From: a virus | UHGV virus genome: UHGV-1366603 | Length of the DNA stretch: 64,000 nt | Strand: one strand, 5' to 3' | Part shown: positions 48,001 through 54,000 of the stretch, in pieces | How the letters are laid out: the number at the start of each line of letters is the position of its first letter | Position numbering within the stretch: the stretch's first letter is position 1 | Made by a program: the position numbers

Positions 48001-51000
48001 ATGTTGGTCGCGCTTTATAATGCTGCTAACACTGAGCTACCGCATCAGATTACTGATAAAGAAGTGTCCTTTGGTCTCCCTACTGCGCTGGAAGGCGAAA
48101 GTAAGAATACCAAAGTTACCATGACTGCACTACCGGGTTCTGAGAATTTCAAAGGCGAAATCGAACTGCATTACGATCGTCTGGAGCCGGGTGTTGTAGG
48201 ACGGATTGAACTAACTGACGATCTGTCTCGCTGGGTTCAAGAAAATGAACTCCGCGCTTGGTTACAATATTACATCAACAAAGTAAAACCTGACGACGCT
48301 ATCGCACCAGGCGACGTTGTGTACAACACCGAAGACCAGAAAGACGAACATGAAAACGTCACTCTGCGTACCGTGACGTGCACCGTTACCGAAAAGAACC
48401 TCCGTTATAAACCGGGTGTAATGGCAACTTTCGTAATTACACCGAAGGTTGTCGATAATCGTATTGACCTGGCCACCACCAACGGTGAGTTGGACGGTTT
48501 TACTGCTTAATCGCTAAGTCAACTACTATAACAAAAAATAATAAGTTTACCTACCTCCGTAAAGGAGGTAGGTATTTTTTTGCCGCTAATTACAGCCCTT
48601 GCTCTAATGCAAACGCTTTAATTGAATCGTAATCACGGGCTTCGGCCCAAGCTCTGACTTCTTTTTTCTGTTCCGTCATTGCCTGATGCAGTTGCTGGTC
48701 GCGTTGCACAATAGCACCCAACAGTGTTTTGCACTGCTCTACCGTAAACGGTTCGATACGGGTGTTGTTGGCCGTTAACCAGTACGCTGGCGCGGTTTCT
48801 GATTGAATATAACGACTCAGCGCTACCTGTGACTTCTCATCTGCCTGGAAAGTGAAATCACCCACCTGAATCTCGGCATAGCGCGCATCCTGATAACGGA
48901 ATTCCAATGCGCTCAGGATTTTCTGAACATCGGTAAAGATATAGCGTACGGTGGAACGTAACCCCGTACGAATCTCTTCCAAGTCAATTCCCAACGTGTC
49001 GTTAACAAAGTCTTTCGCTTTCTGTAGCGTAAAACGAGCTTCGATTTCAGACATGTCGTAGTTACGCATTTGTTCCAACGCTTCACGATCAGACATCCCA
49101 TCAATCAATTTATAGTGCAGTAACGCGCAAAAACCCGTACGACCATGATCTTCGCTACCGATTTTTTCCATATAGTTACCATGGCGGTCAATCGGTAAAT
49201 CGTGCTCAAAATAACGACGACGGATTTCTTCTTTCGTTAAGCCTTCACCAGTAGCAGACATTCATCGTCTCCTTTAATCAATCCTAATTCGATTAACAGT
49301 TCAAAATCGATATGGCGGAATCTTGTATCGAAATCCGATTCCCAATCGATGCGGATACCCTGGCACTCTTCTGCCGTTAGCTCGGGAAAAATTACGGTAT
49401 TAAATTTCTCACGCTCATCGTAAAACCCATCAATCGGTGAGTTCGGGTTACGCGTTGCGAAAATAGTAATACCGGGGAAAGATAATGCTAACACAGTGAT
49501 AGACTCTGCGCTGGGTTCGCTTAAAGAGCGGCGTAGAAACGCAATTTTGTGGCGTGGGAAGTCCAATACGCGTTCTTCAAACCCTGGATTACGTTTTTCG
49601 ATTTCCGCTACCGACAGGTCAGTAAGTTCGGTGCAATACATTGGGATGATTACAGTCACGCCGTGGCGAATCATTAAACGTTTTACGTCATCAGTAAAAT
49701 CTTCACCGTTAATCATCACGTAACAACCGAATAGCTTACTGTTCTCCAGAAACTTATCCAGAAGTCGAATTCTACGCTTCGTAATATTGTTGATCAGAAT
49801 TGGTTTCATCTTTGGCTTCTCTTAATAATTTTTCCTTTTGGGCGCGTTCACGAACACAGCGTGGGCAATAACACATACTCGTGTCGTGGAACGCTTTTGC
49901 TGACGTCGTACCCATCTTCTGTTTCCAGTATTCCGCCACCATCAGTTTCGCTGTCGTCCAGCCGCACTGACGTCGCTCAGCGTGATACGCTTTACGGTCT
50001 TCCAGTGTCCCTTCACCGTTTTCGTAAGAAGCCGCAGCGCAGCTACCACAAGCGTGCTTCATCGGACAACCTAAACAAGTCTCTGGATAGTTGGTATATT
50101 GTGTTTGAATCTCTTCTAACAATTTACCGTTGTCCAGACTGACGAATTCCCGACCTACCAACTCAAATACCGCAGAACGCGACGTTACGGTTGACATAAA
50201 GCGATTGCAACCGAAGATCTTACGATCAAATCCTAAACACGTCATGTGCGTTAATGTCCCACAGAACGGACGTAAACGTTCTGGGTTCAACCGTACTGTG
50301 TCATTATAAAGTAATTGGTCACGCCAGTTCGGTTCCCAAATCGTATCGAAATCCAACCCTTCTGGAATGATATGCGATAAGATATTACGTGGGTTGGTGT
50401 GTAATCCTTTCTCGACCCAATAATCAATCACATCCATCATCTGCAATGCAATTGAAGTAGCCATGCCGCGTGGCATAATGTCTTCGAAGGTTACGTTGCC
50501 GGAGATAGTTCCGCCACCAGTAATATCAATTAATGACTTCATTCCGGCAGCATAGTACGGTAACGTTTCTAACGTAAAGGTCGCCTTTACGCCAAGCTCT
50601 GCAATGCCAACCTCTTTTAAGTAGTTATAGCCTCGTACTGCGGCTTCGTAAGAACCCTGGCGCGTCGTTGTAAAGATACGATAACGGTCATGGGACTCAG
50701 GTAAGCCGTCAATTGAAACCCCAACCGAAAGTTTGTCTTTCCAACGCTCTACGATCTCACGGTTCAACGGGCGATCTAACAACGTCCCGTTTGTGGAAAT
50801 ACTAAACATAAACGGCCGATTATGTTCTTTACACAACTGCTCGGCGGTTTCAAATGCAGCCAGCAGCAACTTAGGCTGCATGAACGGTTCACCACCGATA
50901 ATGTCGATAATAACTTCAACATTCGGTTCGTTTTTATCACGTTCAAAACAGGCGTGCAAGAAATCAACAATATCTGCCGCTTTGTTGTTACGCGGGTACT

Positions 51001-54000
51001 TACGTTCGTAACAATATTCGCAGTCCAGGTTACACGAAAGATTCGTTACAATCTGATACGTTAGCTGCTTAGGGAATTCATTTACTTGACTCATTTGCCG
51101 CCCCTCTATTACGCCCTGCCATCACTACGCGACGAATATATTCGTAAGCCTCTACACCGATAGAGAAGGCCAGTTGGTTACACCCGGATTCCAGTACGTT
51201 AGGTGCATTCTGGAGCTGGTGCTCACCACCGTCTGCATTAATCCAGAGACTTTCGCTGCAAACGTTACAGCCTTCTTCAAACACTTTACTTACCGTAAAA
51301 CCACATTCACGTCTGTTTACTACATTCAGTCGTTCAATGTTGTCCTGAACCTGATAGTAGCCGTAAATAAAGTTCATGACGTGGTCAGGTGATAACGGTT
51401 TTGGCATTTTCGCATCTAAGAGTAACGTCATTGCTCGGAAACCGTAATGGTAAATCGCGCTATGCAGCTGAATAATATCTTCATGCCAACGTTTATCCCC
51501 CAAACGGTCCCGTGTCAAGACACCCCAAGTCTGGACATTATCCAGCTCGTAGATCGTTTCCAGTGCTTCGTAACAGCCTTCGTCAATAAAGCGCATAAAT
51601 GGACGCTCAGACGACTTAAACCCATCGATGCTAACGTAGACATTGTCAAACTGTTTTAGCAACGGGAGATGCGATTTACGCATCTTTAAGCCATTGGTAT
51701 ACAACTGGTGTTTGAGTTCTGGACGAATCACTTTTAATTCGTCAACAAACGCCTCAATTTTACGGGTTGCCAGTAATGGCTCACCACCCGTCCACTGAAT
51801 TTCGGTAATGGTTGGATTAGCTTCCAACGCTTCCAAAATTCGCTCACGTTGAAACTCTCGCGGAGAATCTTCACGATTCATGTAATAGGCTCCACCGCAG
51901 AAGCTACAATCCAGGTTACACTTGGACGTAGCGACTACGGACAATACGGTGGGTTTATCGTATAAACGATTCGATAACCTTGGTTCTGCATTGGTTGTCA
52001 TTGCAGGTGACTCCGGTCGTTTTTAAATATAATCAATGGCGAACAAAGGATCGTCGTCTACGTTAGCACCAGGGGTTAACAAGAATGGAGAGTTATACGC
52101 TTCCAAAATACGGTTAAGGTCTTTATAACGGACATTTAAACGTTCTAAATCCGCTAACGTTACGTTACGGTCCAACACCGCCGACACTGCTGCTTTCTCT
52201 TCGTCAGTTAACGTGACTTTCGTCATTAAGAAACTAACGAGTTTTGCCAGATCCGCTTCTGTTGACGGATGCTCGCCAATACGTGTTTGAATCAAATGCT
52301 GCATCCAAGGCTTACGGATGCGTTTTGTGATTTCGTGCTCATCCGTCAGGGCAACCCACACAGAACGTTCACGATCCCACACGAACTTATAGCTATACGC
52401 CATTAAATCCGCTAAGCAATTAATCCCTAACGCTTCGTACCCTTCAATTTCGATATACGATTCCGTATCGAAATAGTTCTTCGTTTCTGGTGTTACCAGG
52501 GTAAAGAAATACGGGAACGAGCCTAAGTAATCCGGCGACCACCAACGACGGGCAACCGGTTTTGCACCCATTTCTTCAAACGGGGTAAAGAACAATTCCA
52601 TATCTACGGAGTTATTCAAAATCCCGTCACTAAAGAAATATTTACCTGCAACCAATTTACCACGCAACTCGGAGTCACCGGTAAAGACCACTACACTTTC
52701 TGCCGCCAGATCACGAATCTTAAACGTATTTTCTACACGATAGTTTTTACGATCGGTAAAGAAACGTCCGCGCACTTTAGGCCATTCGCCTGGCAATTGC
52801 GTCAGCAGACGAACTTCATCTGCTAAGTGTGCACGTACGGAATCAGGGGAAGAAATGTGAAGTGGATGATTGAAAATCGTTTTGTACGCTAAATGTAAAT
52901 CATTCTTCATTGATTGCTCCAACTATTTTACGGTCAAACGGACGTTCAGGGTATAGAACCCACCCCGCCATTGTCTGCCGGTAACTTGAAACTCAGCAGT
53001 AAACCCATTCGATTTACTCGGTTGCTGGTTAATCGCCATACTACCGCCGGAATTACTTAAAACCTCTAAAGAGATAGAAGCAGAAGTCGCATTACCGATT
53101 GAGTCTATCTTAAAACTAGCCGCATCTGTAAAATTGACAGTAATACCATCACCCATCGCAACTTGGGGAAAGGCTTACTTACCGCCCCCCTGCTCCCTTA
53201 CTACAGCTACCGCTGCACGACCAGCTACATCCACCGTTACAGTTGTAGTGGCTTAAAGGTAAACCGGCAAGGTTATTGGTTGAAGACACGGTACCCTGGT
53301 TTGCAATATAGTTGTTTGCGTTAGCGGTCGTAATATACCCTTCCGCTGTTACTAAACGATCACGAAGGTTCTTAAGGCTAATCACAATTACCTCCCAGAA
53401 CACCCACCGGAACAAGAACCTGAACAGCCTGAAGAACAGTTCCCTGTACACGCGTTAGAACAGCTCCCCGTGCAACTTCCTGAACACCCACCGGAGCAGG
53501 TATTCGAACATCCGCTACAGCCCGCGCTACAACCTGATACGCAGTTTGCAGAACACGAGGAACCACAACCACCGGATGCGTTTCCTGTGCAGCCACCAGA
53601 ACAACTCGAACACGTCCAGCTACAACTACCTCCGCAGTCGTAGTGATTGCGGGCCTGTCCTCCGAATAAGTCTGCGTTGTTTGTCGCTTTCCCGCGAATA
53701 TAGTTTTGTACTGCACCCGTATTCTTCAATGCAGTGCTGTCAATGTTATTTAACCGCGCTTGTAGCGCAGGTAATCCAATTGCCATTTTTCACCTCTTAG
53801 GTTGGACCAGAACAGCCGCCAGAGCAGGCACCAGAACAACCCGTAGAACAACGGCCTGAGCAAGCACCCCCACAAGTTCCGCTACAACCTGAACACCCAC
53901 CTGAACACGTTGAGCTACATCCAGTACATTGGTTACCGCACGCAGAGGAGCAGCTGCCTACACACACAGACGTACAAGTACCCGAACAGCTCGTACAACC

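Follow-up and report, generated by a model that had tools for sequence, protein, structure and literature searches.

The 64,000-nt stretch of UHGV virus genome UHGV-1366603 that we analyzed (the window) carries two adjacent, overlapping genes for radical S-adenosylmethionine (SAM) enzymes, a long one of 440 amino acids (aa) and a short one of 307 aa. Both lie on the minus strand, as do the other open reading frames (ORFs) discussed here. On the same strand, 1.2–2.2 kb upstream of the enzyme genes, are three paralogous genes (53179-54195) for small proteins with cysteine repeats of the form C-x-x-x (CXXX proteins 1 to 3), and between these and the enzyme genes is placed a gene of family phrog_8030 (Table 1). 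At the DNA level, the region is about 72% identical to a group of jumbo phages that includes Salmonella phage SPN3US; these phages are related to phiKZ, have genomes of 240 kb, and infect Salmonella, Escherichia coli, Proteus, and Erwinia. By its sequence, the window is assigned to an SPN3US-like jumbo phage. The original prediction, made from the sequence of the window, had described the two enzyme ORFs (49772-51094 and 51078-52001), their 17-nt overlap, and a CNLDCxxC motif in each; all three observations hold.

Table 1. Features of the minus-strand unit and its borders (window positions)
Feature	Position	Strand	Basis
Tail/baseplate-periphery protein, 1727 aa, SPN3US gp168 homolog, phiKZ gp131-like	55500..60683	-	phrog_7449, E = 0
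Coiled-coil virion structural protein, 401 aa, SPN3US gp167 homolog ('virion structural protein 20')	54260..55465	-	phrog_2163, 1.6e-102; SPN3US annotation
CXXX-repeat protein 1, 131-132 aa, 21 Cys, proposed substrate	53797..54195	-	phrog_6085, 1.7e-40
CXXX-repeat protein 2, 132 aa, 20 Cys, mostly Cx3C, proposed substrate	53388..53786	-	phrog_6085, 1.6e-39
CXXX-repeat protein 3, 68 aa, GTG start, 4 Cys: NCNGGCSWSCSGSC	53179..53385	-	phrog_6085, 4e-24
77-aa ORF, uncertain status	52923..53156	-	ORF call
phrog_8030 protein, 299 aa, third conserved cassette member	52023..52922	-	phrog_8030, 2.4e-141
Short radical SAM enzyme, 307 aa, SPN3US gp164 homolog	51078..52001	-	Pfam Radical_SAM, 6e-14
Overlap of the two radical SAM genes, 17 nt	51078..51094	-	Direct sequence reading
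Long radical SAM/SPASM enzyme, 440 aa, SPN3US gp163 homolog	49772..51094	-	Pfam Radical_SAM, 3.4e-15
phrog_7988 protein, 190 aa	49237..49809	-	Overlaps long radical SAM gene by 38 nt
DUF4376 protein, 223 aa, last gene of the minus-strand unit	48590..49261	-	Pfam DUF4376, 2.5e-11; phrog_8169
Bidirectional hairpin, 11-bp perfect stem, between convergent genes	48548..48574	.	T-runs on plus strand

The long enzyme carries the radical SAM motif as CNLDCEYC (C21/C25/C28) together with IGGEP and scores 57 bits on Pfam Radical_SAM (cut-off, 29.5); Pfam Fer4_12 is matched by both enzymes. When it was aligned with 20 homologs of 27–85% identity (alignment A1, 21 sequences), the invariant cysteines were C21/C25/C28, C278, C296, C340, C343, C349, C352, and C377. 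The seven C-terminal residues of this set remained invariant in a second alignment of nine sequences, to which TIGR04115-type phage enzymes at 23–24% identity had been added, and C286 is nearly invariant and confined to the fiber-type clade of long enzymes. C340/C343/C349/C352 form the Cx2Cx5Cx2C cluster of CLGCPMKHACGSC, which HMMER aligns, with a one-residue gap, onto the CxxCx5Cx3C motif of CteB. The long enzyme has the seven-cysteine SPASM motif (CX9-15GX4C...CX2CX5CX3C...C) in a form whose last spacing is x2 rather than x3 throughout the family of long enzymes. The glycine of Gx4C is kept in relatives (GKVYGC) and is replaced by Arg in the window protein. The full SPASM-like cluster originally proposed for the 440-aa protein therefore survives both the 21-sequence alignment and the wider one, and the long enzyme is predicted to have ligands for two auxiliary clusters besides the radical SAM cluster.

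The terminal CYCPRC, which had been listed along with this cluster, is indeed present, but it is no part of the SPASM motif and is conserved only in the jumbo-phage clade. It is kept as CxCxxC in 9 of the 10 sequences of that clade in alignment A1 (the tenth has CGSGSCGC). Because it occurs in none of the prophage relatives of the long enzyme, we regard it as a clade-specific addition outside the SPASM motif, and it may provide a docking element or a site for an additional metal. The tail (49853-49870, residues ~409–414) is modeled with a predicted local distance difference test (pLDDT) score of 61–75.

The top NCBIfam match of the long enzyme is TIGR04115, the family of peptide maturases with CXXX-repeat targets (1.4e-33, 116.9 bits, residues 10–371; equivalog cut-off of 350 not reached), followed by the PapB family of ranthipeptide maturases, NF047865 (2.2e-33, 115.9 bits; cut-off of 340 not reached). 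Families TIGR03942 (anaerobic sulfatase-maturing; 59.2 bits, core only) and TIGR03974 (SCIFF maturase; 58.3 bits) also remained below their cut-offs of 349 and 425, respectively. CteB is the best sequence match in the PDB (1.3e-13). It also ranked first (1e-14), ahead of ChlB, anSME, and SuiB, when the AlphaFold2 model of the long enzyme (pLDDT 86.8) was searched with Foldseek, and the modeled fold matches the SPASM enzymes CteB, anSME, and SuiB over ~400 columns.

The short enzyme has CNLDCSFC (C28/C32/C35) and TGGEP, and scores 53 bits on Pfam Radical_SAM against the same cut-off of 29.5. Its family, aligned down to 26% identity, shows CX3CX2C, GGE, and many core residues to be invariant. 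Toward the C-terminus, invariance extends to C245, C248, and C274 but not to C232, in agreement with the partial cluster proposed earlier for this protein; the seven-cysteine SPASM motif is absent. The AlphaFold2 model (pLDDT 85.9) places short strands at residues 251–254 and 260–262, between C248 and C274, and the family N_Twi_rSAM was matched at 37.7 bits (cut-off, 170). From sequence and model, the C-terminus looks like a three-cysteine, twitch-like domain. Three ligands would leave one predicted iron coordination position open, a situation that has precedent in Aux I of CteB and in MoaA. The spacing of the three cysteines varies within the family. The best PDB match by phmmer is SkfB, and Foldseek ranked CteB and SkfB first (9e-11). 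A scan with the short enzyme returned 64 viral loci, among them 18 full-length relatives, every one from jumbo phages. In the SPN3US record, gp164 (L001 10321-11244) is annotated as a radical SAM gene of 795 nt with an apparently truncated start; if the ORF is extended to 11244, its alignment with the window protein covers 304 codons.

Both enzymes keep, in their sequences, all of the motifs for SAM cleavage, and both modeled folds are nearest to the thioether-forming peptide maturases CteB and SkfB. The likeness to peptide maturases that had been suggested is borne out by these comparisons, which place CteB, SkfB, and anSME among the best matches; the auxiliary cysteines hold in alignment, and no cut-off of a cofactor or nucleotide family is reached. 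We considered whether the enzymes might instead be auxiliary metabolic genes (MoaA-, QueE-, or viperin-like) that lie beside the CXXX genes by coincidence, as could be taken from the moaA or albA labels of some homologs, the structural matches to viperins, and the sub-threshold scores of the short enzyme on MoaA (43.8 vs 284 bits), viperin (39 vs 180), QueE (35.5 vs 260), and NrdG2 (34 vs 131), but this is scarcely credible, as those matches are limited to the shared radical SAM core (residues ~20–130) and fall far under the cut-offs, and two findings described below speak against it, the linkage to CXXX genes and the conservation of the cassette across jumbo phages, prophages of the lambda-like and P2-like types, and additional phage-like contigs.

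The two enzymes share ~25% identity over the core and belong to one PHROG (1802). An hhalign comparison of the two families gave a probability of 97.6% over residues 14–212. On this evidence they are distant paralogs, and they are two distinct radical SAM enzymes, as had been proposed. The hhalign alignment covers the core only and gave no placement of the short enzyme's three invariant C-terminal cysteines on the SPASM region of the long one. The ATG of the 440-aa gene is preceded, at a distance of 6 nt, by a Shine-Dalgarno-like AGAGGGG (51101-51107) that still belongs to the terminal part of the 307-aa gene. The overlap of the two genes recurs elsewhere, with 17 nt in the related locus L016, 8 nt in SPN3US as annotated, and 1 nt in a Campylobacter prophage in which the order of the genes is reversed; the tight coupling of the pair proposed from the window is thereby supported. 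That adjacency is kept whatever the gene order fits the stoichiometric co-production of both enzymes.

The three CXXX proteins have a repeat-free N-terminus of ~50 aa, after which the cysteines are spaced almost exclusively as Cx3C or Cx2C, with the repeat consensus C-[S/T]-G-[G/S/T]. Across 72 Cx3C units, positions +1 to +3 are S, G, T, N, or A, with no Asp. CXXX protein 2 matches TIGR04114, the cysteine-rich repeat family paired with TIGR04115, at 4e-4 (20.7 bits; cut-off, 20). Relative to SPN3US, nucleotide differences at the first, second, and third codon positions number 37/24/67 in CXXX-1 and 27/30/82 in CXXX-2, and CXXX-3 is identical to an unannotated SPN3US ORF in 61 of 68 residues. 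Synonymous and nonsynonymous codon changes number 49/38, 54/34, and 31/7 in the three ORFs. Since third-position and synonymous changes predominate, we conclude that the CXXX ORFs are genuine genes.

A junction motif, NAD.(L/F)GG....Y.CGGSCSW(T/S)C, is common to the CXXX proteins of the window and to fiber proteins of a Deferribacter prophage and of locus L017. For CXXX protein 1, the shared form reads ..NA(A)D.F.G....(Y/L).CGGSCSW(T/S)C. The phrog_6085 domain likewise forms the C-terminus of the fiber-like proteins in Deferribacter (4e-12) and L017 (2.7e-14). The CXXX proteins are probably fiber components. After the last cysteine, the window proteins end in CSGPT (53797-53805) and CSGR (53388-53396), and relatives end in CHGPT (L005, 5021-5251) and CHGPQ (L019, 6883-7176). 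This C-terminal end motif could be a recognition or termination signal.

The SPN3US record contains three CXXX ORFs of 130, 134, and 68 aa (144828-145220, 144413-144817, and 144191-144397, minus strand; together 144191-145220, L001 12167-13196), all of them unannotated, and its gp166 (SPN3US_0166 / ACQ60_gp100) is a wrong-frame gene call across one CXXX gene. Of 40 listed records of isolate phages, 19 have no feature annotated at the homologous CXXX gene.

The long enzyme has relatives in at least 216 viral stretches, and we examined 80 of these loci for CXXX ORFs. A same-strand CXXX-repeat ORF (36–940 aa, up to 126 Cys) was present in 77 of the 80. As controls, we used the 46 viral loci with unrelated radical SAM proteins from the short-enzyme scan (64 minus the 18 relatives) and 80 bacterial loci, mostly N-terminal core matches to generic SPASM enzymes from an unspecific genome-contig scan with the long-enzyme alignment. 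Such an ORF was found in 1/46 and 2/80 of these, respectively.

The arrangement of a cysteine-repeat protein, a phrog_8030-like protein, a short enzyme, and a long enzyme recurs beyond jumbo phages. Each of the closer non-jumbo homologs with retrieved context (Deferribacter, Campylobacter, L005, L230–L232, and L017) lies within a phage tail module. The full cassette is present in five of these seven contexts, with L005 and L232 partial, and in five of the seven the cysteine repeat is the C-terminus of a fiber-like protein. In a lambda-like prophage of Deferribacter abyssi, the gene order is GpJ-like, a 302-aa fiber with HDxRYYTE repeats that ends in YYRCSDCSWTCSSSC..., a 250-aa protein, the short enzyme, and the long enzyme. 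A P2-like prophage of Campylobacter pinnipediorum encodes baseplate J, I, a tail fiber, a 250-aa protein, the long enzyme, the short enzyme, and the sheath; the fiber is a true tail fiber (phrog_327, 1e-54) that ends in CNGCSGSCSGSC.... L005 has a T7-type fiber, a 76-aa CXXX peptide, a 291-aa protein, and one called radical SAM gene. L230, L231, and L232 are arranged alike, with three radical SAM genes in L230 and, in L232, a second radical SAM protein of 392 aa and no phrog_8030-like gene identified. In L017, a baseplate wedge gene precedes a 568-aa fiber with a C-terminal repeat and two radical SAM genes. Locus L028 has its cysteine repeat in the middle of a 937-aa protein, a position that favors a structural segment or rod over a cleaved core peptide.

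The 250-aa protein of Deferribacter occupies the same position as the 299-aa phrog_8030 protein of the window and is its homolog (BLASTP 3e-10; phrog_8030 1.9e-11), and the 291-aa protein of L005 is a phrog_8030 homolog as well (6e-6). The 250-aa protein at this position in Campylobacter gave no match in the PHROG search. The window protein, which probably starts at the ATG at 52910, had no match in Pfam, NCBIfam, or the PDB (including PDB profiles), and its relatives in a set of 1.84 billion proteins come to only 26 cluster representatives. In the sequences compared, the cysteine-repeat proteins and the phrog_8030 protein are the only conserved partners of the enzymes. We therefore treat a four-family cassette, as defined by gene content, as the functional unit, with the radical SAM pair as its enzymes.

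Some of the related loci differ in enzyme content. L016 (IMGVR_UViG_3300045988_078609), whose long enzyme is 93% identical to that of the window, has a third radical SAM gene (4576-5487), 63% identical to the short enzyme of the window, between CXXX-1 and CXXX-2. A large distant group, comprising many gut-metagenome viral contigs (L020–L085), has a single TIGR04115-type radical SAM enzyme. Partner proteins in this group have a conserved N-terminal domain of ~110 aa (..ELKAKVKAE..RR..GSV..Y...YDY..) followed by 20–126 Cys in CXXX repeats, and their neighbor genes are mostly uncharacterized. The more distant phage relatives reach 308.8 bits on TIGR04115 and match TIGR04114/04117.

Taken together, we favor, with moderate confidence, the reading that the two enzymes are maturases of the kind that act on peptides made by the ribosome and modified after translation (RiPPs), and that they and the phrog_8030 protein modify the three upstream CXXX proteins, as fiber-type tail or baseplate proteins, by radical cross-linking. 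The parts of this reading differ in strength. It is very likely that the adjacent CXXX proteins are the substrates of the enzymes. That the chemistry is thioether cross-linking is suggested by analogy with the nearest enzymes, and here we consider the arguments for and against to be balanced. In the mechanism that we propose, the long enzyme, with its radical SAM cluster and two SPASM auxiliary clusters, would be the core maturase. It would abstract a hydrogen from a repeat residue and join a Cys sulfur to that carbon, which along the C-[S/T]-G-x repeat would give a ladder of small thioether rings. The short enzyme would carry out a second step or be an obligate partner of the long enzyme, and the phrog_8030 protein would take the place of the N-terminal recognition domain that is missing here. 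This would yield a fiber segment that is stapled covalently, rigid, and resistant to proteases and that would become part of the virion.

For the division of labor between the enzymes, the original prediction had offered two possibilities. One enzyme per precursor class is unlikely, as Deferribacter, Campylobacter, and L231 each have a single cysteine-repeat fiber protein together with both enzymes. Two different modifications are possible from the sequences, as are two different steps or an obligate heterocomplex of both enzymes. The earlier interpretation was thus sound as to the enzyme pair, its likeness to maturases, and its coupling, and it fell short in the idea of precursor classes and in leaving the CXXX proteins and the tail-fiber context unlinked.

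Several of the systems known to us resemble parts of the cassette. The system of TIGR04115, TIGR04114, and TIGR04117, whose chemistry is to our knowledge uncharacterized, likewise has a SPASM radical SAM enzyme adjoining a C-x-x-x repeat protein and supplies the top family match. Relative to it, the long enzyme has the extra conserved C286 and the jumbo-phage CxCxxC tail, and the cassette adds a short radical SAM enzyme and the phrog_8030 protein and has fiber-type substrates. PapB, the freyrasin maturase (NF047865), is a SPASM enzyme that also starts at the radical SAM motif without a long N-terminal domain and has as its substrate repeated Cys motifs at four-residue intervals. The bond made by PapB joins Cys to the β-carbon of Asp in CX3D motifs, whereas the repeats here are almost devoid of Asp. 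By functional analogy, the cassette most resembles these two systems.

CteB, the SCIFF maturase (PDB 5wgg/5why), is the best solved-structure match by sequence for the long enzyme and by fold for both, at 19–21% identity to the long and 15–17% to the short enzyme. Its ~100-residue N-terminal peptide-recognition domain is absent here. Sactipeptide and SCIFF maturases of the AlbA/CteB type are recognized by such an N-terminal RiPP recognition element (RRE, PqqD-like) ahead of the radical SAM core and SPASM, whereas the long enzyme, with its radical SAM motif at residue 21, lacks one. SkfB (PDB 6efn), which forms a thioether, is similar to the short enzyme in its truncated auxiliary-cluster domain, but identity is 19%, SkfB has an N-terminal recognition domain, and the spacing of the three cysteines differs. 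In architecture only, the cassette is analogous to the His-Xaa-Ser system with its four parts: the repeat peptide HxsA, the long HxsB, the short HxsC, and HxsD. The long enzyme matches HxsB at 1.7e-21 (76.5 bits; cut-off, 370) and the short enzyme matches HxsC at 4.8e-10 (38.8 bits; cut-off, 268); for the short enzyme of Deferribacter, HxsC is the top match (4.3e-13, below the cut-off). The substrate repeat there is H-x-S rather than C-x-x-x, and we know of no phage or fiber context for that system. That a SPASM enzyme can staple a folded protein subunit, rather than a small secreted peptide, has a precedent in QhpD, which makes thioether cross-links in QhpC, a subunit of quinohemoprotein amine dehydrogenase. 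Its family, TIGR03906, matches only the core of the long enzyme (6.5e-17, residues 15–153), and QhpC uses Asp and Glu as acceptors and has no repeat architecture.

The strongest competing explanation concerns the short enzyme, which might pair with the long enzyme in a heterodimer and there present the substrate or play a structural role, without being an independent catalyst. Its auxiliary site is incomplete, its gene is always adjacent to or overlapping that of the long enzyme in either order, and the long enzyme occurs alone in most of the distant relatives. We nevertheless consider this role unlikely, as the invariance of CX3CX2C, GGE, and core residues down to 26% identity argues that SAM cleavage is retained, and the extra short-type copies in L016 and L230 look like catalytic diversification.

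A second explanation is that the cassette makes a diffusible RiPP, bacteriocin-like or directed against the host, with the CXXX proteins as leader-plus-core precursors that are cleaved and released at lysis. At 68–132 aa and with ~50 aa free of repeats at the N-terminus, the CXXX proteins resemble RiPP precursors, and the enzymes belong with RiPP maturase families. L005 encodes a stand-alone 76-aa peptide with a 14-aa N-terminus, and the 97-aa peptide of L019 has no tail genes nearby. Against this stand the fusion of the repeat to a fiber-like C-terminus in most of the non-jumbo contexts and its internal position in L028, the junction motif that the N-terminal region of the CXXX proteins has in common with fibers, and the flanking of the genes by virion fiber genes and the DUF4376 tail-type gene. 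No protease or exporter gene was found in the unit. A diffusible product is, in our judgment, quite improbable.

We give about the same low weight to the explanation that the repeats bind metal or Fe-S clusters or are stabilized by disulfides, and that the radical SAM enzymes make a change other than a cross-link (epimerization, anSME-like oxidation of Cys or Ser, or methylation) or load metal. Dense Cx3C/Cx2C spacing is typical of metal sites, and metal-binding repeats are known from T4 fibers. In addition, anSME is among the top structural matches of both enzymes, and the epimerase EpeE is matched by both (Foldseek rank 47 for the long and ranks 45–49 for the short enzyme). The families nearest by sequence (PapB, CteB, and SkfB), however, form thioethers; the sulfatase motif C/S-x-P/A-x-R was not found in the CXXX proteins or in adjacent proteins; and Pfam detected no cobalamin methyl-donor domain. 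Radical cross-linking of the CXXX proteins remains the reading that we prefer to each of these.

The following observations weigh against that reading. The long enzyme scores far under the TIGR04115 and PapB cut-offs (116.9/350 and 115.9/340), it lacks an N-terminal RRE domain (its residue 19 aligns to CteB residue 105), and the repeats lack the Asp acceptor that PapB uses. A single radical SAM enzyme suffices in most of the distant phage relatives, with no evident need for a short enzyme. In L019, a 279-kb viral contig, the cassette (6883-10074) is minimal, with a 97-aa peptide ending in GCESCAMGCHGPQ (3 Cys), a weakly phrog_8030-like protein of 267 aa, the long enzyme, and the short enzyme, and it lies beside a helicase-like gene, away from tail genes. 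The SPN3US record lacks the true CXXX ORFs, and we found no virion proteome data for the CXXX proteins in the SPN3US literature searched. The essential-gene and proteome papers on SPN3US mention gp168 and do not mention gp163–166; their supplements merely list 163 and 164 as common to PhiEaH2 and CR5. In the full-text literature that we searched, we found no paper on the cassette or on such a modification of virus particles, and nothing on these genes other than their annotation.

The enzymology proposed here is familiar, and what is new is the class of phage-fiber substrates, the obligatory set of partners, and the viral setting. We suggest, more tentatively, that phages of unrelated tail types (jumbo phiKZ-related, P2-like, lambda-like, and T7-fiber-bearing) may staple cysteine repeats of their fibers by radical SAM-dependent C-S cross-links. 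If so, this would be the first case in which a structural protein of the virion undergoes a radical modification of the RiPP type, and RiPP chemistry, beyond its role in secreted peptides, would also build virus particles. It would explain the two 'radical SAM superfamily' genes that are annotated in SPN3US-type phages without an assigned function, and phage fibers would be a biological home for the uncharacterized CXXX-repeat/radical SAM family. SPN3US-type phages would carry three small stapled fiber proteins that annotations and proteomes have missed, and the three genes should be added to annotations of these phages and to virion proteome databases. The fiber tips of Salmonella, E. coli, and Erwinia phages that are therapeutic candidates may have unusual covalent features that bear on stability and host range, and the enzymes could find use in stapling repeat peptides.

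The remaining genes of the unit extend on both sides of the cassette, and intergenic gaps within it are 0–64 nt or the genes overlap. Farthest upstream is the homolog of SPN3US gp168, which is reported to be a tail protein similar to phiKZ gp131 at the baseplate periphery and fibers (PMC5105663). Downstream of the radical SAM pair, the phrog_7988 gene is kept in SPN3US-like phages, and its membership in the cassette is uncertain. The DUF4376 protein has weak matches to tail and tail-fiber PHROGs. The hairpin beyond it is likely, from its sequence, to be a bidirectional terminator that closes the fiber/radical SAM unit. A scan for sigma-70 promoters gave fewer matches than the shuffled expectation, a result that is irrelevant because the phage uses its own RNA polymerases.

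The 77-aa ORF between CXXX-3 and the phrog_8030 gene has no family match in Pfam, NCBIfam, or PHROG; it is missing from SPN3US and from L016 and is accordingly a lineage-specific insertion. A further run of cysteine codons in the window (29708-29875, minus strand) was rejected as a CXXX gene, being an antisense artifact within a 1507-aa plus-strand gene. A protein 100% identical to the short enzyme of the window is encoded in L086 (IMGVR_UViG_3300029126_000001, 225 kb), and P0121, deposited under Salmonella enterica serovar Braenderup, is 99% identical to it. The Braenderup match suggests a Salmonella host, with phage DNA contained in bacterial assemblies.

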